The position numbers were made by a program, and so were the translations under genes. Below, piece by piece: positions 2,344 through 61,468 of a DNA stretch of 64,000 nucleotides (positions are counted from its first letter, which is position 1; each line of letters begins with the position of its first letter). Under the pieces are notes generated by a model that saw only the letters and a program-made list of their open reading frames with translations, was not told where the DNA came from and searched no databases. The DNA is from Candidatus Doudnabacteria bacterium. Its GTDB lineage: Bacteria; Patescibacteriota; JAQUNI01. The stretch spans positions 7,530 through 71,529 of the forward strand of contig JBAZQX010000003.1 in assembly GCA_041644975.1 (NCBI GenBank), written 5' to 3'.

Positions 2344-4950
2344 ATGATTCTTAGCAAAATCACCATCAGCGGTTTCAAATCTTTCGCTCATCGCACCAGC
2401 CTTTCTTTTGACCGCGGAATTACCGCCATTGTCGGACCAAACGGGTCAGGGAAATCCAATATTGTAGACGCTATCCGCTGGGTTTTGGGCGAACAGTCTA
2501 AAAAATCATTGCGCGGGAAAAAGGGCGATGATATTATTTTCGCCGGCTCAAGGACTAAAACTCCTTTGGGATTAGCCCAAGTAGCTTTAACCCTGGAAAA
2601 CACGACCCAAAAAATTCCCGTCAGCTCCGGAAAAGGGGAGGCGGTAAACCCCCCCACCCAAAATGCCACGGGCGTAAATTCTTGGACGAATGGTGCCGTT
2701 GGAACTTATAAAGCGAGAAGCAGACATTGCCATACCCTTTTGGGTGGGGGGGTGAACTTTTCCGAAATCACAATCAAAAGAAAATTCTATCGTAATGGCG
2801 AGGGAGAATATTTATTAAATAATAGCTCTGTGCGCTTAAAAGATATTGAAGAACTCTTAGCGCAGAGCAACATTAGCCAAAAAGGATATATTATCAGCCA
2901 AGGAATGATTGATCGCATAGTGATCTTGAGTCCCCAAGAAAAAAGAGAGCTTTTGGAGGAAGTTTCAGGAATTAAACCCTTAGAACTCAAAAGAATTGAG
3001 GCCCAGAAAAAGCTTGAGACAACGCGAGATAACCTTGTCCGCGTTCGCGCCCTTGTGGCGGAAATTGAGCCGCACTTGAAAAGGCTTGCCAAACAAGCGC
3101 GAGAGGCCAGAAATAAAGAAAAGATTACCCAAAAACTCCAGGAATTACAAAAAATCTGGTACACCAAAATCCGACAAAACCAAGAAAAGGCGCGCCAAAA
3201 AATAAGCAGAGAGAGGACAGAAATAGAGGAAATAATCAAAAATCTTGAAACCCAAATCCAAAATTTGCAAAAAATGGTGTCTATAATGGAGGTAAAACAA
3301 AAAAAAGACCAAGAAAACTGGCACCTCTGTTATCAAAACCAAGCGAAACTGGGGAAGCAAAAAAGCGTCCTAGCCGAAGAGCTTGCCACTCTCCGCGGCA
3401 CCCTAGTTGCCGAAAAACTCCGCCCGCGCGAGCAGCAGCAGGAAATTAACCGCGCGCATCTGGAAATTCAAAGAATTGACGCTGAAATTATCTCCTCCCA
3501 GAAACAAAACGCGATCCTCCAGAACAACCTAGAAAAAACCAAAAAAGAAATTGAAAAGCTGGAAAGGGAGGGGGAAAAATTAGAAGCCGAAGGAGTGGCG
3601 CGGCCGAACCCAACCACATTGCAAACCGCCTTGGAGGATTTACAAAATAGACAAAATATCTTTCTGGACAACTTTAAACATGGTCTTGATATTGCCTCTC
3701 TGAAATCCCAAGCGCAAGAAATTTTAAGGCTCATTCAACACTTAACAGAATGGCTGAAAACCGCGGCAACACTGCCTAAAGAACAAAACGGGAACCCAGC
3801 CTCTCGCGAGGGGCTGGGGAAGCGAAAATTAGAAATGTTAATGGAAAATAAAGGCAAGAAAGAAGAGCAAGCTCATTCCCTCCTTTTAAAATCGCGCACG
3901 GAAGAAGAAAAAATTCTTTTTTTGAACTTCCAAAAAAAGAGTTGGGAGGGAAAAATCAATCTCGGACGTAAACAGCCCGCCGCAGACGCTCAAAATACTG
4001 CCAAGCTCCAGCAAAAAATCACTCTACTTGGCAAAGAAATGCAAAAGAAGGAAGAAGAGACGCAAATTTTGGAAGAAAAAATCGCCCAACTTCTCAAATT
4101 GGATACAACGCGCAAAAACAAACTCTTTGCGCTGGAGCGCGAATCGCGCGAGAAACAAGACGCGATGGGGAAGCTCGGCCAAGAAAAAGCCCGCGTGGAG
4201 TTAGAAGAAGCGAAACTCAACTTGGAAAAACAGGGGCTTAATCGCGAAATTAAAAAAGAGTTAGAGGACAAGTGGGGTCGTATTGACATCGTCTCTAAAA
4301 AAGAATCTCCGCCTAATCTGGATTATGAACTCCAAATTAACAAACTGAAGAAGAAAATGCTCTCGGCAGGCAGTATTGACCCTGAAATCATTACTGAATA
4401 TGAACAAACACGCAGCCGGTGCGATTTCTTAAGCCAGCAAGCGGAAGACTTGGAAAAAGCCTCTTCAGGCTTAGATAAGCTCATTCATCGCCTAAGCCGC
4501 ATCATTCAAAAAAAATTCAGCATCGCTTTTAAAACCATCAACCTTGCTTTCAAAAAATATTTCAGGATGATTTTCGGCCGCGGCGGAAAAGCAAGCCTTA
4601 AAGCGGATGAGGAAGGAGGAATTGTAATTGAGGCTTGTCCGCCGGGAAAAAAATTAAAAAGCCTCTCCGTCCTTTCGGGTGGAGAAAAGGCTTTGGCTGG
4701 CTTGGCTTTAATTTTTGGGATTATTGAGCTCTCCAGACCCCCTTTCTGCATTTTAGATGAGGTGGACGCGGCGTTAGACGAAATAAATTCTCACCGCTTT
4801 GCCCGCATTTTAAAGATATTAGCCCGAGGAAGTCAATTTATCTGCGTCACCCATAACCGCGCGACAATGAAAGTGGCAAAGGCGCTGTATGGAGTGACGA
4901 TGAATGAAGAGGGGGTGTCAAGGTTGCTGTCTATGAAATTGGAGAAATAG
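2344..4950 (+). CDS. smc: Chromosome segregation protein SMC, carrying an in-frame insertion of about 40 aa from a palindromic GC-rich element at about nt 2640-2760
   Basis: N-terminal Walker A (GPNGSGKSNIVDAIRWVLGEQS), long coiled coils, and a C-terminal signature motif (LSGGEKALAGLAL) with Walker B (ILDEVDAALD). Confidence 0.9.
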   Translation: MILSKITISGFKSFAHRTSLSFDRGITAIVGPNGSGKSNIVDAIRWVLGEQSKKSLRGKKGDDIIFAGSRTKTPLGLAQVALTLENTTQKIPVSSGKGEAVNPPTQNATGVNSWTNGAVGTYKARSRHCHTLLGGGVNFSEITIKRKFYRNGEGEYLLNNSSVRLKDIEELLAQSNISQKGYIISQGMIDRIVILSPQEKRELLEEVSGIKPLELKRIEAQKKLETTRDNLVRVRALVAEIEPHLKRLAKQAREARNKEKITQKLQELQKIWYTKIRQNQEKARQKISRERTEIEEIIKNLETQIQNLQKMVSIMEVKQKKDQENWHLCYQNQAKLGKQKSVLAEELATLRGTLVAEKLRPREQQQEINRAHLEIQRIDAEIISSQKQNAILQNNLEKTKKEIEKLEREGEKLEAEGVARPNPTTLQTALEDLQNRQNIFLDNFKHGLDIASLKSQAQEILRLIQHLTEWLKTAATLPKEQNGNPASREGLGKRKLEMLMENKGKKEEQAHSLLLKSRTEEEKILFLNFQKKSWEGKINLGRKQPAADAQNTAKLQQKITLLGKEMQKKEEETQILEEKIAQLLKLDTTRKNKLFALERESREKQDAMGKLGQEKARVELEEAKLNLEKQGLNREIKKELEDKWGRIDIVSKKESPPNLDYELQINKLKKKMLSAGSIDPEIITEYEQTRSRCDFLSQQAEDLEKASSGLDKLIHRLSRIIQKKFSIAFKTINLAFKKYFRMIFGRGGKASLKADEEGGIVIEACPPGKKLKSLSVLSGGEKALAGLALIFGIIELSRPPFCILDEVDAALDEINSHRFARILKILARGSQFICVTHNRATMKVAKALYGVTMNEEGVSRLLSMKLEK
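2641..2762. repeat. MITE-like palindromic insertion inside smc, with inverted termini (aaacccccccacccaaaa / ttttgggtgggggggtg), kept in frame
   Basis: Inverted repeats of about 17-18 bp flank roughly 75 nt. The encoded segment (SSGKGEAVNPPTQNATGVNSWTNGAVGTYKARSRHCHTLLGGGV) lies where canonical SMC heads have no insert, between the LTLEN and EITIKR..GEGEYLLN motifs. Confidence 0.6.
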
Positions 4951-5168: not shown

Positions 5169-5822
5169 ATGTTAAGAATTCGTTTAACCCGCCGAGGGAA
5201 AAGGAACCGTCCATTTTTTAGAATTGTCGTTGCCGAAGCGCGAGCGCCAATCAAGGGGCGCTTTATTGAGGTGCTGGGGGGATTGGATCCCCTTGGAAAA
5301 AAAACGAGTCTCAAGGAAGAAAGAATAAAATATTGGCTCTCCTGCGGCGCCAAACCTTCGGATACGGTGCATAATCTTTTAGTGGGTCATAAAATTATTG
5401 CCGGCCCAAAAATTAAAAAGTTCGCCCACAGGAAGAAAAAAGGCGAGGAAGCGAGCAAGGAAGAAGCAAAGAAGGAAGAGGTAAACCCCATTAAAGAACA
5501 AGATTCTCCAACGGTCCACGTTGACGGTGGCGTTAAACCGCCGTCAGCTTTAAGCGATAATGACCACCAGGCGGCTTTCTCTAACGGGGTAAAAGCCGAA
5601 ACCGTAGAGGAAACACAGCAGAAGACCCGAAAAAGCGAAAAACCAGCTGAAGCTGAAAAAGAAAAGCAGGAAGACACGGCAACGCAAAAAGAAACCGCCG
5701 ATAAAGAGGAAAAAGCCGAGCCCGCGCAAAAGGCGCCCGAAGAAGAGCCTAAACCCGAAAAAGCGGAAAGCGCGACGACTTCCAAGGTTGAACCACTGCC
5801 CACAATAGAAACAAAGCCCTAA
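5169..5822 (+). CDS. rpsP: 30S ribosomal protein S16 with a long K/E/A-rich C-terminal extension
   Basis: The N-terminus (MLRIRLTRRGKRNRPFFRIVVAEARAPIKGRFIEVLG...KYWLSCGAKPSDTV) matches S16. Confidence 0.9.
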   Translation: MLRIRLTRRGKRNRPFFRIVVAEARAPIKGRFIEVLGGLDPLGKKTSLKEERIKYWLSCGAKPSDTVHNLLVGHKIIAGPKIKKFAHRKKKGEEASKEEAKKEEVNPIKEQDSPTVHVDGGVKPPSALSDNDHQAAFSNGVKAETVEETQQKTRKSEKPAEAEKEKQEDTATQKETADKEEKAEPAQKAPEEEPKPEKAESATTSKVEPLPTIETKP

Positions 5823-5984: not shown

Positions 5985-6165
5985 CCCACCCCCGCCCGCC
6001 TCGCCTGAAGCCACGCCCGCCATGCTAGCCGCAAGGCGTTGCGGGCGGGCGAAGCGATGGCGGGCAGGCCAACCCTCCCTTGTCAGGGAGGGGGCACAAA
6101 TTTCCCCCCTGATAAGGGGGGCAAGGGGGGTTCCACGGTGCAAAGCCGTACATTTCATAATTCAA
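5985..6165. repeat. GC-rich palindromic repeat cluster combining the cgcctgaagc...gcgatggcgggcagg element with the caaatttcccccctgataagggggg...ttccacggtgcaaagccgtacat element (near-identical copy at 20338-20410)
   Basis: Sequence identity with 20338-20410, 21540-21590 and 41205-41245. Multiple perfect hairpins sit in an otherwise AT-rich genome. Confidence 0.7.
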
Positions 6166-6550: not shown

Positions 6551-9500
6551 ATGGAGAAAAACACGGAAGGCGAGGGGAAAGAAAAGCCTTTAGAAAAAGA
6601 TAAGAAACGAGAAAAAAGAAGAGAGGTAAAGAATAAACACAAAAACAAATTAGAGCCCTTAGACCCCGACGAGGGGAAAAATATTCCGGAGAAAACTGAA
6701 AAAGAGAAAGGAATTACTCCCGATAAGGTGCGGGTAATTTTAGATAATTTAGGGCGAGAATTGCCTCCAGAAAAAAAGGAAATTACGGTGCGCTTTCATC
6801 CTGATCTCGCGGAAAATAATTTTCCGGATTTAATTGCCAAATTAGAAGCCAAGACGGGTACCAAAATCATTCCTCAATGGGATGATGGGGTGGACATTGA
6901 AAAGGGTTTTGCGATTGTGTCCGAAACAGTCCCTGAAAAGCCGGAAACGCCTTTAGAACCAGCGGAGCTCCTACCCCCTCCTGTCTCCGCCCTTAAGGCA
7001 GAGGGAGAGCCGCTCCCACCCCCTCCAAATACAGAGAAAGAACAAAAGACCCCAGACGGGAATACCCCTGAAAAAAGCGTTAGCGAACCAGAGGAAAAAG
7101 GCGAGGAAAAGCCGCAAGAAGAACCTCCTTCAGAAGAAAACAAACCCAAACCAGAAGAAACCAAGCCTGAACAGAAAATGGCAGAAAAAAGCGTTCCCCG
7201 CGAAGAAGAGAAAAAAGAAACAAAAGAAATCCCACCGCGGATTCAAGAAGTTTTAGACCGCTTAAACGCAGAGCTGGAAAAGCATAGCGATGCCGAAGAA
7301 GTTGATGTTACTTTTAATTATAAACTTGCAGAGAGCCTGCTTACTATCCCAGGCGCGGACTTTAGAAAGCTCCGACCTCAAAGCTACAAAAAAATCCAAA
7401 CAATCAACTATTGGAAAGAAAGAGAGAGCGTTTCTCCTCTTGGTTTTGTAATTGAAGAAATAAAAAAGAGGAAACCCCAAGAAAAAGAAGCAACTCCCGA
7501 AAAAAAACCTAAATCAGAAGAAACCGAGCCCGAACAGAAAGCAGAAGAAAAAAATGTCCCTCCAGAAGGAGAGAAAAAAGAAACAGAAATCCCTCAAAAT
7601 ATGGAGATGCTGATTGCACTCTTAGATTCAAAAATAGCCGAATTTCAAACAGTCCATCCGGAAACCAAAGACATTGACATTCTTTTTAGCGAGGAACTCA
7701 TAAAAAAACTGGGGATAAAATATGGCGATAAAAAACAACAAGCAATCTGGCAAAAGATTGACTCCATCAAAGAGAAAGGATTCAATGTGCTATATTTTGG
7801 AGGAGAGAAGATACCCCCAGAAGAAGCGGTAAGGATTGAGGAGGTTGTTCCGAAAAAAGCAGGGGCAGAGACCAAAACAAAAGAAAAAATAACCCCCGCG
7901 GAAAAAGGCGAGATAAAGGAAGAGCCTTCCCAGGAGAAAACCGCTCCCTCCCCCTCCACCTCCCCCTCGGGCAGGGGGAGTGCCGCTCCCAAAACAGAAA
8001 AACCGCGAGAACCAATAACCGCGGCGCGAGAGACAGAGACCCCAATTGAAATACACCCCTCTCCATCCCGCGTGTCAGAAGAGCGGCTTGCTGAAAAGCG
8101 CCAAGAGTATTTAGAAGCCAAAAGACTGCGCGGTAAATTTATTAGCCGCGGAGAATTTAAAGGCAAAGAGGGAGAAGCGAAACTTGCTCAAATCGGTGAA
8201 GAATATAGCAAAATGCGCGCTGAATATATTCGCGGTAAAGCGACAGAAGTATTGAAAGAACAGAAGCTGCCCGCGACGGAATTGAAAACAAAGATTGTGG
8301 AGAAACTTCTGGAAGAATATAACAAAGAAGAAGGGGAACGGGAAAAATTGATCGAGGGCAGGGAAAAAGGCTTAGGGCAGAGGTTTAAAGAATGGTGGCG
8401 CCGTCATCCTAAAGCGCGAATGCTCGTTGGTTATGGCTTAACCGGCGCTTCGGTAGGGAGTATGCTTTCAGGACAGCTCTGGCTGACTCCTTGGTTTATT
8501 GGCGCCCGAGCCGCTTTTGCCGGAACGGGCGCGGCTCTCGGCACAGAAGGGATGTTATCCCGCTATTCTAAAACCTTAGGCGAAAAAGGGCTTGTGAACG
8601 AACTAGTTAAATTCAGCAAAGAAGAAAAGGCTAAACTCAAAAAAATCAAAGACAAAGGAGAACAGGAAAAAGCGCGCCAAAAAATGATTAACGATAACGT
8701 TGCCAAAGTCTCGCCCGAGAATTTAGCGCGCGAAATGGCGCGCGTCAAAACCCTGCAAGAGAAAAAAGGGGTGAAACTAGAAAATATAGGACCATATGGC
8801 GCGGTGCTTTTGGCTTTAAGAGCGCGGGAACAAGAACTTTTAAAAAAACGGATGACGGAGGCAATGGAAAAAGGAGAAAAAACTAAAGAAGATTTACTTT
8901 TTGAAGCTATAAACTCCGGCTTGGAAAAAGAGGCAAGAGAAATGGACAAAAATGTGGAAGGGGCGGGAGAGGCGGAAAGAAAAAAGGCAATCAAAAGATG
9001 GGTCTTCAGCAGTAGCGCTGGAGCAATCACAGCCGGACTCACCGCTTGGTGGGGATTCTCTAGGCTCGGAGAAATTTCAGGCAAGGGAAAAATAGCAGGG
9101 GGCGCGGCTCACGCAAAAACGGCTCTGGGTCTGCCAGCGCCAGAAGGGTTGGCAACGGATTTTGAGGTCATTGCCGGCAAAGGCGACTCGGTCTGGAAAA
9201 TGGCAAAACGCGCTTTGGCGGAAAAATATGGCAGCCGCTTTACCAATCTTGATGAAGCGCGCCGCACTTATGTCATTGACGCGATAAAAGATAAAATCGC
9301 GAAAAACCCCGCTCGTTTTGGTCTAACTGATATAGACAAGGTAAAGATTGGTCAGAAAATAGATTTTGGCGGATTAATAAAAAACAACAGTATAATGGAA
9401 GGGATCTTTGGCAAGGCGGGACGGCTAACAGGAGAACAAGTGGAAAATATTTTGAATAATAATGAGACAGTGCAAGAATTCCACCGTCTCCATCCCGGAA

Positions 9501-10060
9501 CTCATTTAGATAGCGAGAAAATAGATCAAATCTTGAGCCCTAATAGAGGAGATGAGGTCTTGGAGGCAAAACCCGCAGCGCCGCGGGGAGACATCAGCGC
9601 GCCAGAAATTACTCCGGAGGAAACCCCGAGCTTGGAAGAAAGCGCGATTCCTACTGAAACTGAAGCTGCAAAAATAGAAGCGCCGCAGACAGAAGAGACT
9701 CCAAGTCCAAAGACGGAAACCCCCTCTCCTACTCCAGAGGCCGCTCCCGAGGGAGATATATCCGAAGCAATGATTCAAGAAATTCCCGACTGGACTCCGG
9801 AAAAGATTGCCAAGACTGCTCTGCCCTTGATTCAAGAAAATTCAAAACTGAAAACGGTCAAAGGAATTTTAGAACGTTATCTAACTAACCTAAAAAGCGG
9901 CGAGATTTTTTTACCCGAGCAAACGGAAGCCAGCGCCGCTATTAAAGAAATAACCAAAAGAACCAAAGAGCTCGGGGAGAGCGCGGGGGAAAGATACGAG
10001 AAAACCCTGTTGGAAAACACCAAACTTTTCATAGGCACTGCCGCGATGGGGAGAGAGTAG
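6551..10060 (+). CDS. Large hypothetical E/K/P-rich repetitive protein with central transmembrane segments. It contains internal tandem repeats (KPKPEETKPEQK...) and an embedded copy of the GC-rich palindrome ctccccctcgggcagggggag, encoding PSPSTSPSGRGS
   Basis: 1169-aa ORF with low-complexity repeats and hydrophobic stretches around aa 610-660. The same 35-nt GC palindrome occurs at 10205-10240 and 18345-18380. Confidence 0.6.
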   Translation: MEKNTEGEGKEKPLEKDKKREKRREVKNKHKNKLEPLDPDEGKNIPEKTEKEKGITPDKVRVILDNLGRELPPEKKEITVRFHPDLAENNFPDLIAKLEAKTGTKIIPQWDDGVDIEKGFAIVSETVPEKPETPLEPAELLPPPVSALKAEGEPLPPPPNTEKEQKTPDGNTPEKSVSEPEEKGEEKPQEEPPSEENKPKPEETKPEQKMAEKSVPREEEKKETKEIPPRIQEVLDRLNAELEKHSDAEEVDVTFNYKLAESLLTIPGADFRKLRPQSYKKIQTINYWKERESVSPLGFVIEEIKKRKPQEKEATPEKKPKSEETEPEQKAEEKNVPPEGEKKETEIPQNMEMLIALLDSKIAEFQTVHPETKDIDILFSEELIKKLGIKYGDKKQQAIWQKIDSIKEKGFNVLYFGGEKIPPEEAVRIEEVVPKKAGAETKTKEKITPAEKGEIKEEPSQEKTAPSPSTSPSGRGSAAPKTEKPREPITAARETETPIEIHPSPSRVSEERLAEKRQEYLEAKRLRGKFISRGEFKGKEGEAKLAQIGEEYSKMRAEYIRGKATEVLKEQKLPATELKTKIVEKLLEEYNKEEGEREKLIEGREKGLGQRFKEWWRRHPKARMLVGYGLTGASVGSMLSGQLWLTPWFIGARAAFAGTGAALGTEGMLSRYSKTLGEKGLVNELVKFSKEEKAKLKKIKDKGEQEKARQKMINDNVAKVSPENLAREMARVKTLQEKKGVKLENIGPYGAVLLALRAREQELLKKRMTEAMEKGEKTKEDLLFEAINSGLEKEAREMDKNVEGAGEAERKKAIKRWVFSSSAGAITAGLTAWWGFSRLGEISGKGKIAGGAAHAKTALGLPAPEGLATDFEVIAGKGDSVWKMAKRALAEKYGSRFTNLDEARRTYVIDAIKDKIAKNPARFGLTDIDKVKIGQKIDFGGLIKNNSIMEGIFGKAGRLTGEQVENILNNNETVQEFHRLHPGTHLDSEKIDQILSPNRGDEVLEAKPAAPRGDISAPEITPEETPSLEESAIPTETEAAKIEAPQTEETPSPKTETPSPTPEAAPEGDISEAMIQEIPDWTPEKIAKTALPLIQENSKLKTVKGILERYLTNLKSGEIFLPEQTEASAAIKEITKRTKELGESAGERYEKTLLENTKLFIGTAAMGRE

Positions 10061-10290
10061 ACCACCCTTCAGAACCTCCCCCCCCACCCCTCCTTGGAAA
10101 GGAGGGGATAATCAGAACCCCCTCTTCGCTCCCCCTCGGAAAGTGGGAGCGTATTTCACCTCCCGGGAGGCGAGGAGGGGTCTAAATAAAGATCATCCAA
10201 GCTCCCACCCCCTCCGCCTCCCCCTCGGGCAGGGGGAGTGAGAATCTTCCTCCCCTTTCCAAGGAGGGGTGGGGGGGGTTCTGAAAATAC
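10061..10290. repeat. GC-rich palindromic repeat cluster containing ctccccctcgggcagggggagtgagaatcttcctcccct
   Basis: Shared with 7945-7990, 12880-12930 and 18340-18420. Several 7-9 bp G/C stems are present. Confidence 0.7.
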
Positions 10291-14639: not shown

Positions 14640-14812
14640 GGCTTTTTTATAAAACTCTTCACCCTTCACCTTTGGCTAAAGGTTAGAGGGTTGACCCTTC
14701 ACCCTTAGCTAAGGGTGAAGGGTTGACAGATTTTTAAAACCTGCTAAAATCATTTTTTAGGTAAAAAGCCTGAAAATCCTTGCCCTTCACCTTTTCTTCA
14801 CCTTTTTTAAAA
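14640..14812. repeat. cccttcacc/ggtgaaggg hairpin repeat cluster (agggttgacccttcaccc ttagctaa gggtgaagggttgac) upstream of the GIY-YIG gene
   Basis: Perfect 10-bp palindromic stems. The same family occurs at 15066-15235 and 21184-21271. Confidence 0.7.
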
Positions 14813-14818
14813 TGAAAC

Positions 14819-15061
14819 ATGTTCTATGTGTATGTTTTGAAAAGTAAGAAAGATAAAAAGTTTTATATTGGTTTCACACCAGACTTAAGACTGCGTCTTC
14901 AAAAACACAATAACGGTAAAGTAACATCTACCTCCTATAGGCGCCCTCTAGAATTAATCTATTATGAAGCTTACAAAGATCAAAAAACTGCGATAAGGAG
15001 AGAAAAGCAGTTAAAAAGCGGTAAGGCACATATGGCTTTAAAAAAATGGCTGACCCAATAA
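14819..15061 (+). CDS. Small standalone GIY-YIG nuclease family protein
   Basis: The MFYVYVLKSKKDKKFYIGFT...L..R...H opening is the GIY-YIG motif. The protein is about 80 aa and is flanked on both sides by cccttcacc repeats. Confidence 0.85.
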   Translation: MFYVYVLKSKKDKKFYIGFTPDLRLRLQKHNNGKVTSTSYRRPLELIYYEAYKDQKTAIRREKQLKSGKAHMALKKWLTQ

Positions 15062-15140
15062 TAACGATGGATAAAACCCTTCACCTTTAGTATAAAAGGT
15101 TAGAGGGTTGACCCTTCACCTTTATGGTGAAGGATGAAGG

Positions 15141-15229
15141 GGTTGACCCTTCACCTTTAGCCAAGGTCTTCACCTTTCATAAAGGATTCATCTATAGCTA
15201 TAGGTGAAACCTACTAAAGGTGAAGGGTG
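15141..15229. repeat. 88-bp repeat. It is the left inverted copy of a pair; the right copy at 21184-21271 is about 93% identical in reverse complement
   Basis: ggttgacccttcacctttagccaaggtcttcacctttcataaaggattcatctatagctataggtgaaacc... matches the reverse complement of 21184-21271. Confidence 0.7.
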
Positions 15230-15237
15230 TTTTCTAG

Positions 15238-16119
15238 TCAATAGCTTCGCATCACTTCTAGGGGTGTTTTCATATTTAAAGCCATATGCGGTCGCTCTGA
15301 ATTATAGTAATGCAAGTACTTCGGAATTTCCTTGCGCCAAGACTTTAGACTTCTTGGGATACGCTCTATACACTCTTCTTGAATAGTGCGGTTAAATCTT
15401 TCAAGATGTCCGTTATCTGTTGGCGTTCTCACTCTGCTATGGCGATGCGATAAACCGGAACTTTGAATTTGTTTTGTAAACCATTTAGAGAATTCAGAAC
15501 CATGATCCGACTGGAGCATCTTGATTCTAAATGGTGCCAATTGGCGAGCTGAATAGATGAAGTTTACGCTTCTGCCAGCACTAATCCTTTCTGTTGGATA
15601 AACATAACTCCATCTGGAACAGACATCTAAGAGAGTATACAGATAAAGTCTATTCTGGCTTACTCCATCCCAAACCGTGTCAATTTGCACTAAGATACCA
15701 GGTTTTTCAGCCAGAGGACGCTTGGGATATTGATGCCACTTTTTCCATTTAGAATAACGGGAACAGTTGAATCTTCTTAAAACTCTCTTAACACTAGAAA
15801 GGCTTATGATATATCCATCCTTTATTAAAAGGTGATGCAATACTTCTGCACAACGCTGATAATGCTGCCGGTAATCCAATATTTTAATAATCATTTCCGA
15901 GGATAATTCCTTGGGATGATGATGGGGACGTGAGCTTTCCGTGGGAATAGTATTCCTTCTCGTCATTCTTGCTTTAATGACCCAGCGCGTGATCGTACTC
16001 TGGTTAAAACCAGTATGGCGCGCCACCTCTCTTGTGCTCCACTTTTGGTTCAAAACCAGTTTTGCTGCTTGCATTCGCAAACGTGGTAAATGGGGGTTTG
16101 TTGTATATGGCATATACAT
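15238..16119 (-). CDS. IS481-family (IS3-like) DDE transposase / integrase core domain protein with an N-terminal HTH
   Basis: HTH (STREVARHTGFNQSTITRWV) plus an rve core with QIDTVWDG...LDVCSRW...SDHGSEF...RTPTDNGHLERFNRTIQEE...YNSERPHMAL. Confidence 0.85.
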   Translation of the reverse strand: MYMPYTTNPHLPRLRMQAAKLVLNQKWSTREVARHTGFNQSTITRWVIKARMTRRNTIPTESSRPHHHPKELSSEMIIKILDYRQHYQRCAEVLHHLLIKDGYIISLSSVKRVLRRFNCSRYSKWKKWHQYPKRPLAEKPGILVQIDTVWDGVSQNRLYLYTLLDVCSRWSYVYPTERISAGRSVNFIYSARQLAPFRIKMLQSDHGSEFSKWFTKQIQSSGLSHRHSRVRTPTDNGHLERFNRTIQEECIERIPRSLKSWRKEIPKYLHYYNSERPHMALNMKTPLEVMRSY

Positions 16120-18177: not shown

Positions 18178-18740
18178 CCACAATTCGCATGTTTACCCCG
18201 TTTAGAGAACGAAATTCTCTAACGGGGTTTAACCAGCCATCCTTCACCTCTCCTTCGTATGAAGCTTCAGACGAGCAACACAAGGTCCACTACGCTTCCA
18301 AGGCTCCGCTGAAAGCGAAGGCGGGCAGGGGGAGTGTCACTCCCACCCCCTCCACCTCCCCCTCGGGCAGGGGGAGTGAAAATCACCCTCCCCTTGACGC
18401 GCGGGAGGGTGGGGAGGGGTCTAACATCACCTGACAAAAATTTAATTTAAATTGACAAATTCCTCAAAAAGCAGCAAGATAAAACTACCTAGCCCAAGGG
18501 TAAATCCAGCCCGGCTAAAAGAACAAACAACAACTCTTCGAGTCTGAAAATCTGAACGAACTATTTTCATAAACAAGCTGTCGCTTGTTCTTTTAAAACT
18601 TTATTTCGGATTTCGGCTGTGATGCCAAAATCTTAGATGGCTAATGGGTTGTATAAGCTAAGCCCAAACAAAGGAGAAAGACGGGTATTGGCAAGGTTTT
18701 TTTATTGTTGTTTGAATAGAATGAAGAGGAGGTAGAAAAA

Positions 18741-20259: not shown

Positions 20260-20410
20260 CCCCTCTTTTCTCCCCCCTTCCGCCTTGGGCGGAAGGGGGG
20301 AGTGAATTTCACCTCCCCTTGACCTGCGGGAGGCGAGGAAGTACAAATTTCCCCCCTGATAAAGGGGGTAGGGGGGGTTCCACAGTGAAAAGCCGTACAT
20401 TGCCTAATTC
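20260..20410. repeat. GC-rich palindromic repeat cluster; its 3' part is near-identical to 6098-6165
   Basis: caaatttcccccctgataaagggggtagggggggttccacagtgaaaagccgtacattgc, versus the copy near 6100. Confidence 0.7.
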
Positions 20411-21183: not shown

Positions 21184-21271
21184 TCAACCCTTCACCTTTA
21201 GGTTTCACCTATAGCTATAGATGAATCCTTTATGAAAGGTGAAGACCTTAGCAAAAGGTGAAGGGTCAACC
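21184..21271. repeat. Right inverted copy of the 88-bp repeat at 15141-15229
   Basis: Reverse complement matches 15141-15229. Confidence 0.7.
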
Positions 21272-21289: not shown

Positions 21290-21640
21290 CCCGAAGCGGC
21301 TGACGCCGTGCCAAGGCAGGGCGGACTTCTAACGGGGTGATAGTTCTGTAGAATCTCATGGGTTTTAAGAGGGGTCTAAAATTCTCCCCTGACAAGGGGA
21401 GATTAAAGAGGGGTTTTTAACAATCAACCCCCCGAACCCCCCTTGTCAGGGGGGTAGTAAAACTTGTTGGCTCCATAGTCCAAGACGCAGGCCAGCGCCA
21501 AAACCCTTGGTTTGCCTCGCCTACCGGGAGGCAGGCATTCTGGCCTGCCCGCCATCGCTTCGCTTCAGGCGAGGCGGGCGGGCTCCATAGGGCTCGCGCC
21601 ACTATGGAGCCAACGGGCTTTCTCTAACGGGGTAAATACC
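21290..21640. repeat. Composite GC-rich repeat region: ccccgttaga...tctaacgggg hairpins, the ttggctccatagt...ggagccaa element, and the cgcttcaggcgaggcgggcgg element
   Basis: The hairpin family ccccgttagagaa/ttctctaacgggg recurs at 18198-18235, 20138-20178, 20935-21010, 24785-24855, 35440-35505 and 58415-58485. The ttggctccatag element also occurs at 31868-31905 and 54560-54690. Confidence 0.65.
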
Positions 21641-57277: not shown

Positions 57278-57397
57278 ATACGGCATCACCCGCCTGCCAG
57301 AGCGCGACCACTTAGCTTGAGTTGGTAGAGCATTTGCTTTATTCACCCGCCTAAATTTTTTGGTGTGTAACTCAAGTCTTACCCCCACACCTTTCGG

Positions 57398-57470
57398 GGA
57401 CGCATAGCTCAGTTGGTAGAGCGCCTCGTTTACACCGAGGAGGTCATAGGTCCGAGTCCTATTGCGTCCA
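57398..57470 (+). tRNA. tRNA-Val (anticodon UAC), precisely enclosed by a 14-bp inverted repeat (acccccacaccttt / aaaggtgtgggggt)
   Basis: Acceptor GGACGCA/UGCGUCC, anticodon stem CCUCG/CGAGG, loop UUUACAC. The T-loop UCCGAGU is atypical because it has C55. Preceded by a degraded tRNA-like fragment (57318-57345: agcttgagttggtagagcatttgc). Confidence 0.65.
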
Positions 57471-57612
57471 CAAAGGTGTGGGGGTAAAGCTGGAGCACCT
57501 AGAAGGCCTGAAGTTTAAATCCTACATTACCCACAGAGTAAATTAAAAATGAAAAGTAAAAAATGTAAAATTGAATTTTTAATTTTTCATTTTTAATTTT
57601 AAATTGTTTTGG

Positions 57613-57930
57613 GCGGCTAGCCCCTCACCCAGAAAGTTTCTATGTATTATGTTTATTTAATCAGAAGCAAAAGAGACAATAGTTTATATATTGGATATAC
57701 AGACAACTTAAAAAGGAGGGTGGAAGAACATAATACTAAAAAGAGTAAATTCACAAAGGCTAAAACTCCCTATGGACTTATTTATTATGAAGCTTATAAA
57801 CACAAATCTGACGCTAAATATAGAGAACACAATTTGAAAAGATTTGCCCAAGCTTATACCCAGTTACAGAGAAGAATCAAGAATAGTTTAAATGATTCTT
57901 AAACTTTCTGGGTGAAGGGCGGCTAGCTCA
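57613..57930 (+). mobile_element. GIY-YIG cassette inserted at the 5' end of tRNA-Ile: an 11-bp duplication (gggcggctagc) of the tRNA 5' end, plus 18-bp inverted termini (ccctcacccagaaagttt / aaactttctgggtgaaggg) flanking the ORF
   Basis: Direct repeat gggcggctagc at 57613-57623 and 57917-57927. The TIRs sit immediately inside it. Confidence 0.6.
57642..57902 (+). CDS. Small standalone GIY-YIG nuclease family protein (paralog of 14819-15061)
   Basis: MYYVYLIRSKRDNSLYIGYTDNLKRRVEEHN. Confidence 0.85.
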   Translation: MYYVYLIRSKRDNSLYIGYTDNLKRRVEEHNTKKSKFTKAKTPYGLIYYEAYKHKSDAKYREHNLKRFAQAYTQLQRRIKNSLNDS

Positions 57931-57990
57931 GTTGGTTAGAGCGCGTCTCTGATAAGGACGAGGTCTCAGGTTCGAATCCTGAGCCGCCCA
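57917..57990 (+). tRNA. tRNA-Ile (anticodon GAU)
   Basis: Acceptor GGGCGGC/GCCGCCC, anticodon stem CGUCU/GGACG, loop CUGAUAA, T-arm UCAGG-UUCGAAU-CCUGA. Confidence 0.8.
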
Positions 57991-58038
57991 CCTACGCTAA
58001 AGCTTCGGTGGACAAGCCCACCGAACACAAAATAAACG

Positions 58039-58353
58039 ATGCGATTTCTAGGGGTCAAAAAATTTCAACGCAATAAAGAAAATTTTGTGTGCGTAAAATG
58101 CGGTTCTCTGATTCATGGCAATGGCTATACCAATCATTGTCCCCATTGTCTTTGGAGCAAGCATGTGGATTTCCAACCCGGCGACCGCCGAGAGGGATGT
58201 CAAGGCATGATGCAACCTATAGGTGTTGAGCTTCGGAAAGGGATATTTATCCTCACCCATCGTTGTCTCAAATGTGGAAAACGGAAAACTAACCGCGCCG
58301 CTCACGAAGACAATTTAGAACTTATTCTGCAACTATCCAAAAATACAAACTAA
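58039..58353 (+). CDS. RNHCP domain protein
   Basis: YTNHCPHCLWSKHVD plus CxxC pairs. Confidence 0.7.
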   Translation: MRFLGVKKFQRNKENFVCVKCGSLIHGNGYTNHCPHCLWSKHVDFQPGDRREGCQGMMQPIGVELRKGIFILTHRCLKCGKRKTNRAAHEDNLELILQLSKNTN

Positions 58354-58537
58354 TTATCGCATCACTCTAAATACAAAATTTTAAACCCAAGCTTTAAGAA
58401 CTAAACCTGCTAAATAGACCCCATTAGAGAACCTCGTTCTCTAACCCCGCTTAAAAATTTATTTCCAGCAGGGGCTAACGGGGTAAATATAATTTTGGTC
58501 AAAGTAGGAAATTTATATTATAATAAAAAAGGAAAAG

Positions 58538-59290
58538 ATGAAAACGCAAGGAAAAATAAATCTACAACCACTCCCAGAGCTAAAAGTTCTCTTCCGAGAA
58601 ACCGCGGAATTCTTTCGGGAACATTTTAGCCTGCTCATTTACCTTTCTTTAATTTTAACGGGTATTGTGTTGATTTTGAGTTTTATCTTGGGCATCTTCG
58701 GCTTCAGTTTCGCTTTCCTTGTAAGCCTGGCGAAACAAAAAGTCCTTTTTCTGGTAATGATAATAATTTTTGTCATCTTGGGCATCTCATTGCTTATTGC
58801 CGCGTTGATCTTCCAAATTTTAGCCCAAGGATCAATAATTTTGGCAATTATTCAGAAAGATTATCGCCGTGAAACAGACGTCAAAAAAATTTGGCATGAA
58901 ATTTTTTCCCAAGCTAAATCAATAATCTGGGTGAATATTCTTACCTCGCTGGTGATTTTAGGCGGTTATCTGCTCTTATTTATTCCCGGTCTTATTTTCG
59001 GTCTTTGGTTCAACTTCGGCATATTCGTCCTTTTGCAAGAAAAACAAGTTGGACGCGCCGCGCTTAAAAGAAGCAGGGCATTGGTCAAGGGATATTTTTG
59101 GCCCCTTGCCTTCAGGGTCTTTATTTTAACCCTGATTATTGGCGGATCATCTGTTTTTTGTTCCCTAATTCCTTTTTTCGGCAGTGTGCTAGGGATGGCT
59201 ATTAGCTTATTTGCCTTGCCTTTTATGTATATCTATCTTTATTTAATCTACAAAAATCTTCTTGAGCTTAAAAAAGTGAATCAAAATTAA
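58538..59290 (+). CDS. Polytopic membrane protein (hypothetical)
   Basis: Five or six TM helices. Confidence 0.5.
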   Translation: MKTQGKINLQPLPELKVLFRETAEFFREHFSLLIYLSLILTGIVLILSFILGIFGFSFAFLVSLAKQKVLFLVMIIIFVILGISLLIAALIFQILAQGSIILAIIQKDYRRETDVKKIWHEIFSQAKSIIWVNILTSLVILGGYLLLFIPGLIFGLWFNFGIFVLLQEKQVGRAALKRSRALVKGYFWPLAFRVFILTLIIGGSSVFCSLIPFFGSVLGMAISLFALPFMYIYLYLIYKNLLELKKVNQN

Positions 59291-59380
59291 TGGTTCGGCA
59301 AGCTCACCATTAATTCTTAAACTTTTCCGAAATTAAAATAAACATTAAATTACAATTTTCAAAAAAGGAGGTGATAAAAA

Positions 59381-60073
59381 ATGGACACTTTAGGGTTGTG
59401 GGGCGAAAGCATAGTGGACTCTATAAGCAAAGTCTGGGCGAGCTTTATTATTTTTACCCCTAAATTATTTGGCGCGATTCTCGTAATGGTCTTGGGCATA
59501 TTTATCGCAATCGGCATTGCTAAAATCGTCCGCCGCATTATTAACGCTTTTCGTATTACGACCATCCTGCAAAAAACCAATATTGATGAAATAGTGGAAC
59601 GAGCGGGAATAAAGTTTGACGTCGGACAACTCGGATACTGGTTAGTAAAATGGTTTCTCGTGATTGCTTTCTTTATGGCGGCTGCGGAAATTCTCAATCT
59701 GCCGCAAGTGTCGCAATTCCTGGGCAAAATCTTGTTCTATGTTCCCAACGTGATTGTGGCGGTATTGATTATGTTGATCGGCACCATTTTGGCTAATTTT
59801 CTCTACCGTCTGGTGGAAAAAAGCGCTAAGGCTGCCGATTTAACAGTTTCTGCGCGCCTGCTCGCTGAGCTTTCCCGCTGGTCTGTACTTATCTTCAGTT
59901 TGATGGCTGCGCTAATCCAACTCAAAATCGCCGCGGATTTAATTCGCACTCTCTTCACGGGATTAATAGCGATGCTCGCGATCGCGGGCGGGATTGCTTT
60001 TGGCCTAGGAGGCAAAGACGAAGCAAAGCGGGTTGTGGAAAAATTGAAAGGCATACGCAATAAAAAATATTAG
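59381..60073 (+). CDS. Membrane protein with repeated conserved TM-helix motifs (MscS-associated TM_helix-like)
   Basis: Repeated amphipathic TM units (FIIFTPKLFGAILVMVLGIFIAIGIAKIV; LVKWFLVIAFFMAAAEILNL; VPNVIVAVLIMLIGTILANF; SVLIFSLMAALIQLKIAADL). Confidence 0.4.
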   Translation: MDTLGLWGESIVDSISKVWASFIIFTPKLFGAILVMVLGIFIAIGIAKIVRRIINAFRITTILQKTNIDEIVERAGIKFDVGQLGYWLVKWFLVIAFFMAAAEILNLPQVSQFLGKILFYVPNVIVAVLIMLIGTILANFLYRLVEKSAKAADLTVSARLLAELSRWSVLIFSLMAALIQLKIAADLIRTLFTGLIAMLAIAGGIAFGLGGKDEAKRVVEKLKGIRNKKY

Positions 60074-60225
60074 ACTAAAAAATCCCATCCTCCGTAGCGA
60101 ATAAGAAAAACCGCGCCATAAGGCTTCAGATGTTATTTAAGGGTCTATCCATAGACTTATATCCTTGGTATTCTGGCGCGGCGGTCAAAAATCAAAATCG
60201 TTGCGGAGGATGGGAAAAATACCCC

Positions 60226-60253
60226 TTGACAGTATTTGAGGATAAGCTATAAT
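60226..60253 (+). promoter_or_regulatory. Sigma70-type rRNA promoter, TTGACA-16-TATAAT
   Basis: ccccTTGACAgtatttgaggataagcTATAATgaaaaa, about 290 nt upstream of the 23S 5' end. Preceded by the terminator hairpin cccatcctccgtagcg...gttgcggaggatggg. Confidence 0.7.
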
Positions 60254-60704
60254 GAAAAATAGCTAAAAATTAAATTACTTTAGTTATGTTATATTTCATT
60301 TGCTTTATACTTCAGCGAAGCGGATAAAATCGCATACTTTGTTTATTGCTTTGGGGAAACCGCTTCGTCATCAGAGCGGTTTTTTGATTGGTAAAATTTC
60401 AAGAGAGAAGCCAAACTTTTTACTTCACCTCTATTCAAAAAGTTCCCTTTTCTCTTGAATGAAGCCGTTCACGAACAGCTTCATAAATGAAAGAACCTTG
60501 ACAATTGAATAACCCATTAAGATAGATATGAATTTATCTAATGGGGTCAAAAATGATTAGAAAACAAAGGGCGTATGGTGGATGCCTTGACTTAAAGAGA
60601 CGATGAAGGACGTAGCAGGCTGCGATAAGCCTCGGGGAGCTGCCAAGCAAGCTTTGATCCGAGGATTTCCGAATGGGGAAACCCAGCGCGGCAAACCCGC
60701 GCTA

Positions 60705-60833
60705 CCCCTCACCTAAAAAGGATTTTTGTTAAAAAATAGGTATTTTTTCTTATTTTAAAAGGTTATAAAAAATAAGATGGATACTGATTTTTAGCGAATC
60801 GCAAAGCGATTCGTATCCTTTTTAGGTGAGGGG
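60705..60833 (+). mobile_element. 23S rRNA intervening sequence 1, MITE-like, with perfect 18-bp terminal inverted repeats cccctcacctaaaaagga / tcctttttaggtgagggg
   Basis: AT-rich core of about 130 nt with a gaatcgcaaagcgattc hairpin. Inserted in the 5' domain at a helix-9-like position. Paralogous to IVS2 and IVS3. Confidence 0.7.
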
Positions 60834-60944
60834 AGACAACCCGGGGAACTGAAACATCTTAGTACCCGGAGGAAAAGAAAAAAAATCCGCGCTTTGCGCG
60901 GAACATTCCCTGAGTAGTGGCGAGCGAAAGGGGAAGAGCCTAAA

Positions 60945-61074
60945 CCCCCCACCTAGAAAAGATTTTTATTAAAAAAAGATATTTTTCTCGTTTTAAAAGA
61001 TTATAAAAAATGAGATGGATATTGATTTTTAGCGAATCGCTTACGCGATTCGTATCTTTTCTAGGTGGGGGGGG
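60945..61074 (+). mobile_element. 23S rRNA intervening sequence 2 (TIR ccccccacctagaaaaga / tcttttctaggtgggggg)
   Basis: Paralog of IVS1 with the same internal ttttagcgaatcgc..gcgattcgtatc core. Confidence 0.7.
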
Positions 61075-61404: not shown

Positions 61405-61431
61405 CTCCCAAGGCTAAATACTCTTTAAGAT

Positions 61432-61468
<37 letters not shown>

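Follow-up and report, generated by a model that had tools for sequence, protein, structure and literature searches.

A palindromic insertion in frame within the smc gene of a Doudnabacteria genome, and a candidate mobile-element family that shares its termini

Described palindromic and intervening insertions

In-frame palindromic insertions are a known route by which selfish DNA persists in streamlined genomes, adding peptides to conserved proteins, and Rickettsia has so far been the textbook case. The Rickettsia palindromic elements (RPEs) are palindromes of ~100-150 bp that lie in frame in unrelated protein-coding genes, where they are read through into additional peptide that the protein fold accommodates; non-coding DNA and RNA genes carry them as well, and R. 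felis has 728 of them, 85 in ORFs and 3 in RNA genes (PMC10969869; PMC1166351). The insertion described here lies in the SMC coding sequence of a 64-kb window (the whole stretch of DNA that was analysed, 64,000 nt), the source of which is a Doudnabacteria MAG. Like an RPE, it is an in-frame palindrome at a permissive site, and its host is also a reduced-genome bacterium. The two hosts belong to different phyla and the sequences are unrelated; homology to RPEs is not expected, because the host is a Doudnabacteria MAG. The likeness ends at the level of the family. Each RPE family encodes a conserved peptide and is often open, whereas no conserved peptide is found in the family discussed below, in which the other copies are stop-rich, the interiors are unrelated and only the SMC copy is coding. 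Further, RPEs have no known autonomous partner, whereas this family includes full-length members with a GIY-YIG gene.

Bacterial MITEs offer a second comparison. Like the SMC element, they are small and ORF-less, with terminal inverted repeats, a target duplication and the termini of a longer protein-coding element, and several of them have been recorded as fused in frame to host ORFs (PMC10969869). At 102 nt, with the host SMC frame as its sole open frame, the SMC copy is below the ~500 bp of a MITE and, like one, lacks a transposase ORF. Classical MITEs, however, descend from IS elements whose transposases are of the DDE or HUH type, whereas the sole gene associated with the elements here encodes an 85-aa GIY-YIG domain. 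To our knowledge, the GIY-YIG nuclease domain is not a recognised bacterial transposase. Also unlike MITEs, the family has interiors that are homologous neither to each other nor to the full-length element, and its copies are concentrated in structured-RNA genes.

This last property recalls the intervening sequences (IVS) of 23S rRNA. The sibling copies are likewise stem-loops of 100-130 nt, inserted at the tips of helices in 23S and 16S rRNA, and those at 60705, 60945 and 61273 each sit in an rRNA helix; the SMC copy, by contrast, is part of an mRNA, which could not tolerate RNase III-type excision that leaves the ends unligated. In the rRNA genes of the Candidate Phyla Radiation (CPR), Tsurumaki et al. 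(2024) described many short (<200 bp), non-intron, ORF-less insertions, as well as GIY-YIG proteins encoded in non-intron insertions, without conserved inverted termini, targeting of tRNA 5' ends, target duplications or copies in protein genes (PMC11270868). A literature search on CPR palindromic elements, and on GIY-YIG proteins with inverted repeats, MITEs or target duplication, returned only that study, in which the termini are not described (PMC11270868). The element family has apparently not been described so far.

The insertion in smc

The host ORF scores 586.6 bits against the NCBIfam equivalog model TIGR02168 (SMC_prok_B), above the cutoff of 567.35. Compared with SMC orthologues, it shows a net gain of exactly 108 nt, or 36 stop-free codons, a multiple of 3; the added residues read AVNPPTQ...HTLLGG and are followed by V. 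Neither of the two nearest orthologues, at 87% and 72% identity, has the segment, nor do 65 further homologues. The L001 and L003 orthologues are both without the palindromic element, and the empty site in orthologues reads GGGGGTAAAC followed directly by TTTTCC. The loop that holds the insert is 54 aa long here. In 59 of 68 homologues it has 10 aa, and in none of the others does it exceed 19 aa. In the alignment with B. subtilis Smc (5h66), residues 1-93 and 137-230 are covered and the 43 between them have no counterpart. An ENA MEGAHIT contig and a Logan contig carry the same smc sequence, such that three independent assemblies agree. This argues against an assembly artefact as the source of the insert, and the palindromic insertion inside the smc coding sequence is real.

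Table 1. Coordinates, in the window, of the SMC insertion, its relatives and a second, different palindrome
Feature	Position	Strand	Remarks
SMC host gene, 868 aa	2344-4950	+	TIGR02168 match; bacterial Smc heads are the best PDB matches
Left duplicated-target copy	2640-2649	+	GGCGGTAAAC; core GTAAAC 2644-2649, codons V101 N102
Left inverted-repeat arm	2648-2663	+	ACCCCCCCACCCAAAA
Palindromic element proper, 102 nt	2650-2751	+	Bounded by family termini CCCCCCACCCAAAA ... TTTTGGGTGGGGGG
Right inverted-repeat arm	2738-2753	+	TTTTGGGTGGGGGGGT
Right duplicated-target copy	2748-2757	+	GGGGGTGAAC; core GTGAAC 2752-2757, codons V137 N138
Different GC-rich palindrome, in frame in ORF 6551-10060	7943-7991	+	APSPSTSPSGRGSAAP
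Target duplication, first 9 nt of tRNA-Ile	57611-57619	+	GGGCGGCTA; upstream of full-length element
Full-length relative, 301 nt, enclosing one GIY-YIG ORF	57620-57920	+	Termini GCCCCTCACCCAGAAAGTTT / AAACTTTCTGGGTGAAGGGC
GIY-YIG nuclease ORF, 86 aa, filling the element interior	57642-57902	+	Pfam PF01541, E = 6.9e-16
tRNA-Ile	57917-57992		
Miniature sibling in 23S rRNA, helix at model positions ~150-176	60705-60833	+	Fold z = -9.5
Miniature sibling in 23S rRNA, model positions ~283-288	60945-61072	+	Fold z = -11.4
Miniature sibling in 23S rRNA, model positions ~454-456	61273-61404	+	Fold z = -6.2

The inverted-repeat arms (Table 1), each of 16 nt, are 100% complementary and 74 nt apart; by our own estimate, the chance of such a repeat is ~64,000 x 300 x 4^-16, or ~0.005 per window. 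As RNA, the copy folds with a basal stem of 16 bp (dG -47.9 kcal/mol, z = -3.6). In a blastn-short comparison with the rest of the window, the element gave only 10-11-nt terminal matches and no second full-length copy. Its interior has no detectable similarity to any other copy and is less AT-rich than the sibling interiors. With the insert retained, the expected peptides would include AVNPPTQNATGVNSWTNGAVGTYK and HCHTLLGGGVNFSEITIK; were the insert skipped, the peptide would be GEAVNFSEITIK.

A target duplication of the kind that accompanies MITEs is evident from the comparison of the L001 empty site, GGGGGTAAAC, with the two copies that flank the filled site, and in the blastn alignment to L001 the HSPs left and right of the insert have 10 nt of the empty site in common. 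The duplication is imperfect, each copy differing once from the L001 site, and, as its G-run overlaps with the right terminus, its length can be given only as 6-10 nt. In the family as a whole, 4 of 28 elements are flanked by exact duplications of 4 nt or more, compared with 0.27 expected, and none of 2000 shuffles reaches 4; the three 23S copies in the window show no target duplication.

These results largely bear out the preliminary description of the locus, which had proposed a MITE-like palindromic element in frame in smc, between the LTLEN and EITIKR..GEGEYLLN motifs of the SMC head. The palindrome is found there, and the empty sites in orthologues, the shared termini and the 108-nt gain all agree with that proposal; the length is a multiple of 3 and the frame unbroken, as had been supposed. 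The description had also raised the alternative of a lineage-specific loop of similar length in all orthologues, but the alignment recovers no such segment and shows the empty site instead. It had further named, as evidence against the proposal, inverted termini shared with no other copy; they are in fact shared with the three 23S elements, with the GIY-YIG element at 57620-57920 and with about 25 elements in other Patescibacteria. On its question of a surface loop, AlphaFold2 predicts a disordered loop between strands. The sizes need revision: the inverted termini exist and measure 16 rather than 17 nt, the insert has 36 rather than about 40 codons, and the roughly 120-bp element resolves into 102 nt plus the duplication.

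In the AlphaFold2 model, residues 89-135 have a pLDDT of 31-34 and lie between the strands at 77-85 and 141-149, compared with ~90 for the rest of the head; the insert is thus predicted to be a disordered loop between two beta-strands, and the added 36-residue segment is most likely a floppy surface loop. The site is permissive, as indicated by the low pLDDT and by the variable length of the loop among homologues, which in the Doudnabacteria-like clade is 7-9 residues longer than in other Patescibacteria. On this reading the insertion is tolerated, and it is probably neutral or mildly costly.

A family of palindromes and its GIY-YIG relatives

The ends of the SMC element (CCCCYCACCYANAA) are also the ends of a Patescibacteria-wide family of 100-130-nt palindromes with the terminal consensus CCCC(T/C)CACC(C/T)A(G/A)AA ... 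TT(C/T)T(G/A)GGTG(A/G)GGGG. Copies are located inside 23S rRNA (three in the window), 16S rRNA and RNase P RNA, and also in spacers. Of the 14 positions of the family terminus, the SMC arms share 12-13; both deviations are compensated in the opposite arm. Within the 64-kb window, the same termini bound four other elements (at 57620, 60705, 60945 and 61273), none of which matches the SMC interior; the copies at 60945-61072 and 60705-60833 are 86% identical over 131 nt, and the former has the C-variant terminus CCCCCCACC in common with the SMC copy. Scans for the terminal pattern yielded 5 loci from genomes and 19 from metagenomes, in collections from which the source genome is absent; overall, the terminus is found in about 30 independent elements.

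Pairing of the termini is widely maintained. Over 28 copies, 92.7% of cells in the terminal stem are paired and 10 of 20 pairs have changed on both sides, with a covariation score of 0.323; shuffled data give 0.110, and none of 500 shuffles attains the observed score. These values come from pair counting on anchored arms, since the interiors are unalignable and most copies cannot be oriented. The stem of ~19 bp is family-wide and covarying, and the one-sided changes are mostly U-G wobbles. Judged by sequence, then, a family with conserved termini and a covarying terminal stem is real. Candidates for a further coding copy were rejected: L016 has an open frame of 202 codons, but its element lies in the ftsZ-ftsA spacer; the element of L021 follows grpE and is non-coding; and a 144-nt in-frame insert in the S16 tail (~5467-5610) shares only GGTAAACCCC, a non-significant match that 16 of 300 shuffles equal in score.

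The element at 57620-57920 links these termini to a protein. Homologues of its ORF number more than 1000, at 84-86 aa, and those in four other genomes, at 66-86% identity, are bracketed by the family termini. In the window and in these four genomes alike, the element stands at the 5' end of a tRNA gene (Ile, Met, Ala or Val), and a duplicate of the initial 9-12 nt of the tRNA lies upstream. The target DNA at the 5' end of tRNA-Ile reads GGGCGGCTAGC. A homologue at 56% identity has related but different termini, and around a paralogue at 14819-15061 (47% identical) the repeats are CCCTTCACC, so that nuclease and termini appear to co-evolve. We infer that the GIY-YIG protein may mobilise the miniature copies, a link made through the shared termini only. 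A GIY-YIG homing endonuclease gene of the group I intron type lies in a self-splicing intron and homes to the cognate intron-less allele. The elements here are not of that type: an Rfam scan of the whole window detected no intron at 57620-57920, and the insertions stand at different tRNA genes.

Taken together, we consider it likely, with a probability of roughly 0.8, that 2650-2751 is an ORF-less 102-nt palindromic mobile element, a miniature of the GIY-YIG element family, that sits in frame in smc and is tolerated. The full-length members of that family, of ~300 nt, would be those with an 84-86-aa GIY-YIG gene between the shared termini at tRNA 5' ends. The copy would have integrated at the empty-site sequence in the coding sequence of the SMC head domain, after the split from the nearest sequenced relative, duplicating 6-10 nt of its target. 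Element and duplication make up 108 nt without a stop in the SMC frame, such that the ribosome would read through and the protein would gain a 36-residue disordered loop, placed in a beta-hairpin loop of the ATPase head whose length varies in any case; being in frame, the insertion would be tolerated.

A broader reading is possible, and we put it forward only tentatively: the 84-86-aa GIY-YIG gene and the conserved 14-nt inverted termini may together constitute an undescribed class of bacterial mobile element, mobilised by a minimal GIY-YIG protein rather than by a DDE, HUH or serine/tyrosine enzyme. Such an element would integrate beside G-runs, typically at tRNA nucleotides 1-11, with a 9-12-nt duplication that regenerates the tRNA 5' end, and would spawn ORF-less miniatures in 23S, 16S and RNase P RNA and in an essential protein-coding gene. 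It is conceivable, more speculatively still, that the duplicated Val-Asn codons and the hairpin let some ribosomes hop the SMC copy and so produce ancestral SMC.

Competing readings and wider meaning

It is also possible, though very unlikely, that the SMC copy is both translated and co-opted, with its stem acting as an RNase III substrate or a ribosome pause that tunes the SMC level, or its loop having gained a function. The stem is perfect (16 of 16 bp), whereas the adjacent duplication differs at two positions and the nearest relative stands at a dS of 0.275; ~2 kb upstream of smc there is an RNase III gene, and the predominance of U-G wobbles among the one-sided changes of the family hints at pairing at the RNA level. 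However, the proposal concerns one copy only, AlphaFold2 shows no structure for the loop, and a perfect stem fits selection for pairing or a very recent insertion, even a neutral one, equally well.

The notion that the element is removed or skipped in expression, by mRNA excision and ligation, ribosomal bypass or post-translational removal, so that the mature SMC is ancestral, is very unlikely. Removal at the RNA or protein level had been suggested in the preliminary description, and the present analysis lends it no support. Bypass has known precedents: in T4 gene 60 and in the 'byp' elements of Magnusiomyces mitochondria, matched codons surround a GC-rich hairpin insert of mobile origin in an essential ORF. 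At the SMC insert, a putative take-off site GTA-AAC (2644-2649) and landing site GTG-AAC (2752-2757) provide matched Val-Asn codons exactly 108 nt apart, and a very stable stem begins directly after the first target copy, at 2648. The resemblance is only geometric, however. Bypass of the T4 gene 60 type has a stop directly behind the take-off codon and a gap that cannot be translated. Here no stop follows the putative take-off codon and the insert consists of 36 in-frame sense codons; it is open and in frame, and bypass is therefore unnecessary. The occurrence of sibling copies inside 23S rRNA, 16S rRNA and RNase P RNA could favour removal, and short rRNA insertions of such a kind are thought to be excised by RNase III (PMC11270868). 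Excision of that type yields fragments, though, and would destroy an mRNA. An Rfam search of 2400-3000 returned no intron, ribozyme or other RNA family at E <= 1, and thus no group I or II intron or catalytic RNA. Inteins need at least ~130 aa, an N-terminal Cys, Ser or Thr and a C-terminal His-Asn followed by a nucleophile; the insert is far too short for an intein, and its junction residues (A/V at the left end, G before V at the right) are unlike those of one. On the + strand, the hairpin forms no intrinsic terminator. The frame itself speaks to the same question: 15 of 120 frames are stop-free among 20 other family copies, and by our own calculation the joint prior for a random family member to leave the correct frame open and to have a length divisible by 3 is ~4%. 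The SMC copy is stop-free and frame-preserving, neither of which would be needed if it were excised or skipped, and this argues for translation over excision; we infer that the insert is probably read through by the ribosome.

It is less credible again, and indeed highly improbable, that the insertion inactivated or crippled SMC, leaving a decaying pseudogene, or that the locus is an assembly chimera. A 36-residue insert in a conserved ATPase head, together with an mRNA stem of ~-48 kcal/mol, could do harm. Yet the 868-codon frame is intact, with Walker A, signature motif and Walker B all present; dN/dS relative to the L001 orthologue is 0.14; and dN to the L003 outgroup is 0.139 with the insert, not above the 0.151 of the insert-free orthologue, so that no acceleration of rate is seen. 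The agreement of three assemblies speaks against a chimera. On these sequence measures, smc is still functional and under purifying selection despite the insert. Finally, an expansion of a lineage-specific loop through slippage, a local duplication or the capture of unrelated DNA, with coincidentally palindromic ends, is already disfavoured and likewise highly improbable: it would suit a site that was variable beforehand and longer in the Doudnabacteria-like clade, and an interior unmatched elsewhere in the window, but chance would hardly produce a perfect 16-bp inverted repeat, the first 14 nt match the terminus of about 30 independent elements, direct repeats flank the insert, and the segment occurs in 0 of 67 homologues.

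If the copy is indeed a tolerated miniature element, the phenomenon exemplified by Rickettsia is now found in the CPR, in the ATPase head of SMC. With the termini, some of the short and so far uncharacterised insertions of CPR rRNA genes can also be assigned to a defined family. Should the GIY-YIG nuclease prove to drive mobility, it would represent a new type of bacterial transposable element, and the GIY-YIG element would also be a candidate explanation for insertions in CPR rRNA, RNase P RNA and occasional ORFs.

A different palindrome in the window recalls the same theme. The preliminary description had reported an in-frame palindrome in ORF 6551-10060 that also occurs elsewhere, and both points stand: CCTCCCCCTCGGGCAGGGGGAGTG is present at 7959-7982, within the longer palindrome of Table 1, and identical copies lie at 10217-10240, past the stop codon at 10060, and at 18355-18378. 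The accompanying view that in-frame repeats are unusual was overstated, as Rickettsia palindromic elements do likewise (PMC10969869; PMC1166351). The L001 orthologue of this ORF carries two further in-frame copies of the palindrome at other positions, and the copies are thus polymorphic between the two ORFs.

Structure and fate of the insertion in smc

The window derives from a Candidatus Doudnabacteria MAG, the name under which NCBI lists P0001, a protein identical to the window SMC. The smc gene carries a perfect inverted repeat between its LTLEN and EITIKR motifs. The position and character assigned to it in the preliminary description stand, with arms of 16 nt in place of 17 nt. That the segment is an insertion, as had been proposed, is borne out by comparison of both proteins and DNA. 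A 36-residue block is missing from the two closest orthologous proteins, P0002 (87% identity, 827 aa) and P0003 (72%, 828 aa), and from every other aligned homolog; among 68 aligned SMC sequences the loop measures 10 aa in 59, 12–19 aa in a Doudnabacteria-like clade, and 54 aa only in the window SMC. The alignment of B. subtilis Smc (5h66) covers window residues 1–93 and 137–230. Aligned as DNA with two insert-free orthologous loci, L001 (GCA_028717685.1) and L003, the window gene shows a net gain of exactly 108 nt, a multiple of 3, without a stop codon. L001, where the site is empty, has GGAGGGGGTAAAC before TTTTCC; the filled site reads GGAGGCGGTAAAC, then the inserted CCCCCCACCC...GGGTGG, then GGGGGTGAAC before TTTTCC. 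This alignment, together with a 10-nt overlap in L001 of the blastn HSPs left and right of the insert, indicates that 6–10 nt of target are directly but imperfectly duplicated around the element, with the core GTAAAC / GTGAAC encoding Val-Asn in both copies.

The encoded protein passes the TIGR02168 cutoff (586.6 bits vs 567.35), has bacterial Smc heads as its best PDB matches, and contains all ATPase motifs. Between the window gene and L001, dN/dS is 0.14, and dN measured against the outgroup L003 shows no rate acceleration in the insert-bearing gene (0.139, as against 0.151 for the insert-free gene). Two other contigs, an ENA one from MEGAHIT and one from Logan, contain the same gene sequence with zero mismatches; the insert is therefore not an assembly artifact. 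AlphaFold2, run with the 68-sequence alignment, models the head confidently (pLDDT about 90), and the pLDDT of 31–34 for residues 89–135, between strands 77–85 and 141–149, predicts a disordered loop. Separately, the modeled middle of the protein is helical throughout, with no globular hinge (residues about 410–490), and neither the window SMC nor its Patescibacteria homologs (about 740–900 aa) have a Pfam hinge-domain match; the hinge of this SMC may be absent or minimal.

The suggestion that the segment might be removed at the RNA or protein level finds no support. Among 20 other family members only 15 of 120 reading frames are free of stops, and the SMC element is the only copy of about 30 within a real ORF. 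By our own calculation, the prior for a random copy being both open in the host frame and frame-preserving is roughly 4%; its being so is as predicted by a selective filter for translatability; a spliced or skipped segment would need neither property. Translational bypass, by which ribosomes would pass over the insert, keeps a slight residual chance: the pair of Val-Asn codons left by the duplication, together with the hairpin, looks like a bypass site, but no stop codon follows the putative take-off codon. An Rfam search of the region found no intron or ribozyme, and the element creates no terminator on the + strand. An intein is rejected, the segment being too short and lacking intein junction residues.

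A family of miniature elements with conserved termini

The termini of the SMC element recur in the window, unlike its interior, for which no second similar copy was found there. They are shared with three insertions of about 130 nt in the 23S rRNA gene of the window and with loci elsewhere. The three insertions occupy three different helices, have the termini CCCC(T/C)CACCTA.AA, and are predicted to fold into a Y shape with a 19-bp basal stem; two are 86% identical to each other, and the copy at 60945 has a T-to-C terminus variant in common with the SMC element. Species-representative genomes and metagenomes, scanned with the pattern CCCCYCACCYANAAN{72,102}TTNTRGGTGRGGGG, yielded 5 and 19 loci, respectively. 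All five genome loci are titled Patescibacteria or Saccharibacteria; for the metagenome loci no organism is named.

Coordinates of the smc insertion, its relatives, and other repeats (window positions unless a locus retrieved by the terminus pattern is named)
Feature	Position or locus	Details
smc gene	2344-4950 (+)	868 aa; NCBIfam SMC equivalog TIGR02168
Inverted repeat in smc	2648-2663, 2738-2753	ACCCCCCCACCCAAAA, TTTTGGGTGGGGGGGT; 74 nt between arms
SMC element proper	2650-2751	102 nt; bounded by the family's terminus definition
23S rRNA gene	60555-63544	
23S rRNA insertion 1	60705-60833	z = -9.5 (fold)
23S rRNA insertion 2	60945-61072	z = -11.4 (fold)
23S rRNA insertion 3	61273-61404	z = -6.2 (fold)
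100-130-nt elements inside 23S rRNA	L010-L013, L015, L017, L027	
100-130-nt element inside 16S rRNA	L007	
100-130-nt element inside RNase P RNA	L019 (8801-8924)	
100-130-nt elements in spacer upstream of 23S	L009, L026	
100-130-nt elements in intergenic DNA	e.g. L016	ftsZ-ftsA spacer
Full-length relative, inverted repeat	57620-57639 / 57901-57920	GCCCCTCACCCAGAAAGTTT / AAACTTTCTGGGTGAAGGGC
GIY-YIG ORF of full-length relative	57642-57902	86 aa
tRNA-Ile	57917-57992	
GIY-YIG paralog	14819-15061	80 aa
In-frame CCTCCCCCTCGGGCAGGGGGAGTG palindrome	7959-7982	in ORF 6551-10060
Identical CCTCCCCCTCGGGCAGGGGGAGTG copies	10217-10240, 18355-18378	first just past the stop codon of ORF 6551-10060
S16 gene; its insert	5169-5822; 5467-5610	insert 144 nt (48 aa)
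TTTCCCCCCTGATAAGGGGGGCAAGGGGGGTTCCAC repeat	6100-6135, 20350-20380, 21428-21454	intergenic

The first 14 nt of the family's arms are nearly invariant; the next 5–6 bp vary by copy yet remain complementary. When pairs were counted across the anchored arms of 28 copies, 92.7% of cells were paired, both partners had changed in 10 of 20 pairs, and covariation scored 0.323 (0.110 in shuffles, with 0 of 500 reaching it). Where only one side has changed, the result is mostly a U-G wobble. Two positions separate the SMC arms, CCCCCCACCCAAAA, from the consensus CCCCTCACCCAGAA, and each is compensated in the opposite arm. In 4 of 28 elements the flanks carry an exact duplication of 4 nt or more, where 0.27 would be expected.

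Palindromic insertions of 100–132 nt with CCCCTCACCYAGAA termini and a covarying stem extension are widespread in Patescibacteria, in 23S rRNA, 16S rRNA, and RNase P RNA, and have no Rfam match. The 23S rRNA gene of the window reaches a score of only 1325 bits, and other insertions interrupt it as well, e.g. after model position 583. No 16S rRNA gene emerged from an Rfam scan of the whole window, though tRNA-Ile stands 2.5 kb upstream of the 23S; ORFs in the interval (57992-60555) encode an RNHCP-domain protein and membrane proteins.

Full-length elements carrying a GIY-YIG gene

The inverted repeat of a full-length relative in the window encloses exactly one ORF, encoding a GIY-YIG domain protein (Pfam E = 6.9e-16). 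The element adjoins tRNA-Ile, whose first nine nucleotides, GGGCGGCTA, recur at 57611-57619, immediately before the left terminus. Homologs of the protein, 84–86 aa long, number more than 1000. At each of four independent homolog loci compared (L029, L033, L035, and L041; about 1470-1850 in each; 66–86% identity), the same termini enclose the ORF, the element lies at a tRNA 5' end (Met, Ala, Ala, and Val), and a duplicate of the tRNA's first 9–12 nt stands upstream. The right-terminus G-run of full-length elements doubles as the first Gs of the tRNA, and the smc target, GGGGGTAAAC, opens with a G-run merging into the right terminus in the same pattern. The ends differ in more distant relatives. 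After a 67%-identical marine homolog comes a 71-nt miniature at tRNA-Ala. A 56%-identical homolog (locus L048) has related but different termini, CCCCCACACC, and CCCTTCACC repeats lie around the paralog in the window, which is 47% identical. A nuclease gene enclosed by conserved termini, combined with target duplications and miniatures that lack an ORF, is the classical signature of an autonomous/non-autonomous transposon pair; judged from sequence, the GIY-YIG protein would be the mobilizing enzyme of the family.

The paralog sits in an intergenic cluster (14640-15240) of direct and inverted TTGACCCTTCACCTTTAG repeats, and a small palindrome of this type lies at about 21188-21268 (region 21184-21270). 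A 24-nt inverted repeat, CTCAAGTCTTACCCCCACACCTTT / AAAGGTGTGGGGGTAAAGCTGGAG (region 57371-57495), whose core is identical to the L048 termini, flanks the window's tRNA-Val (57398-57471).

Known systems and other palindromes

The closest functional analog of the SMC element is the Rickettsia palindromic element (RPE), a 100–150-bp palindrome found in frame in unrelated genes and also in RNA genes (PMC10969869; PMC1166351). Unlike RPEs, the family described here has no conserved encoded peptide, has a candidate autonomous partner, and occurs in a different phylum. Short, uncharacterized, ORF-less insertions in CPR rRNA genes, and GIY-YIG ORFs in non-intron insertions of such genes, have been documented (Tsurumaki et al., 2024; PMC11270868), but inverted termini, tRNA targeting, target duplications, or coding-gene copies were not reported there. 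The literature searched yielded no description of a bacterial GIY-YIG element with terminal inverted repeats. The reading of the smc segment as a MITE-like in-frame insertion is essentially correct and the finding real; it is a new example of an already known phenomenon, its interest raised by the family to which it belongs.

The second case in the preliminary description, an in-frame palindrome in ORF 6551-10060, was also recovered. It represents a different repeat family and the same phenomenon. The L001 ortholog (1255 aa vs 1169 aa) has a longer form at the same site and two additional in-frame copies (PLPPPLASPLEAGGEESLL) elsewhere in low-complexity linkers. The spacer after this ORF contains a compound palindromic element of about 210 nt (10073-10283), with outer termini CCCCCCCCACCCCTCCTTGGAAAGGAGGGG and 48-nt arms (79% complementary), which encloses a CCTCCCCCTCGGGCAGGGGGAGTG copy; its 11-nt end, CCCCCCCACCC, is identical to the end of the SMC element.

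The gene for ribosomal protein S16 also has an in-frame insert, in an E/K-rich C-terminal tail and absent from L001 and L003, that shows no significant similarity to the SMC element; it runs from GGTAAACCCC to GGGGTAAAAG around a central palindrome, TGACGGTGGCGTTAAACCGCCGTCA. Several intergenic sites hold TTTCCCCCCTGATAAGGGGGGCAAGGGGGGTTCCAC, a third short GC-rich repeat. Directly upstream of smc, ORF 1778-2143 encodes a 121-aa '23S rRNA intervening sequence protein' / four-helix-bundle protein (PF05635, TIGR02436) within a 600-nt stretch (1740-2341) that is only 250 nt in L001; an AT-rich inverted repeat (2155-2184 / 2271-2300) borders the stretch, which is probably another recent insertion.
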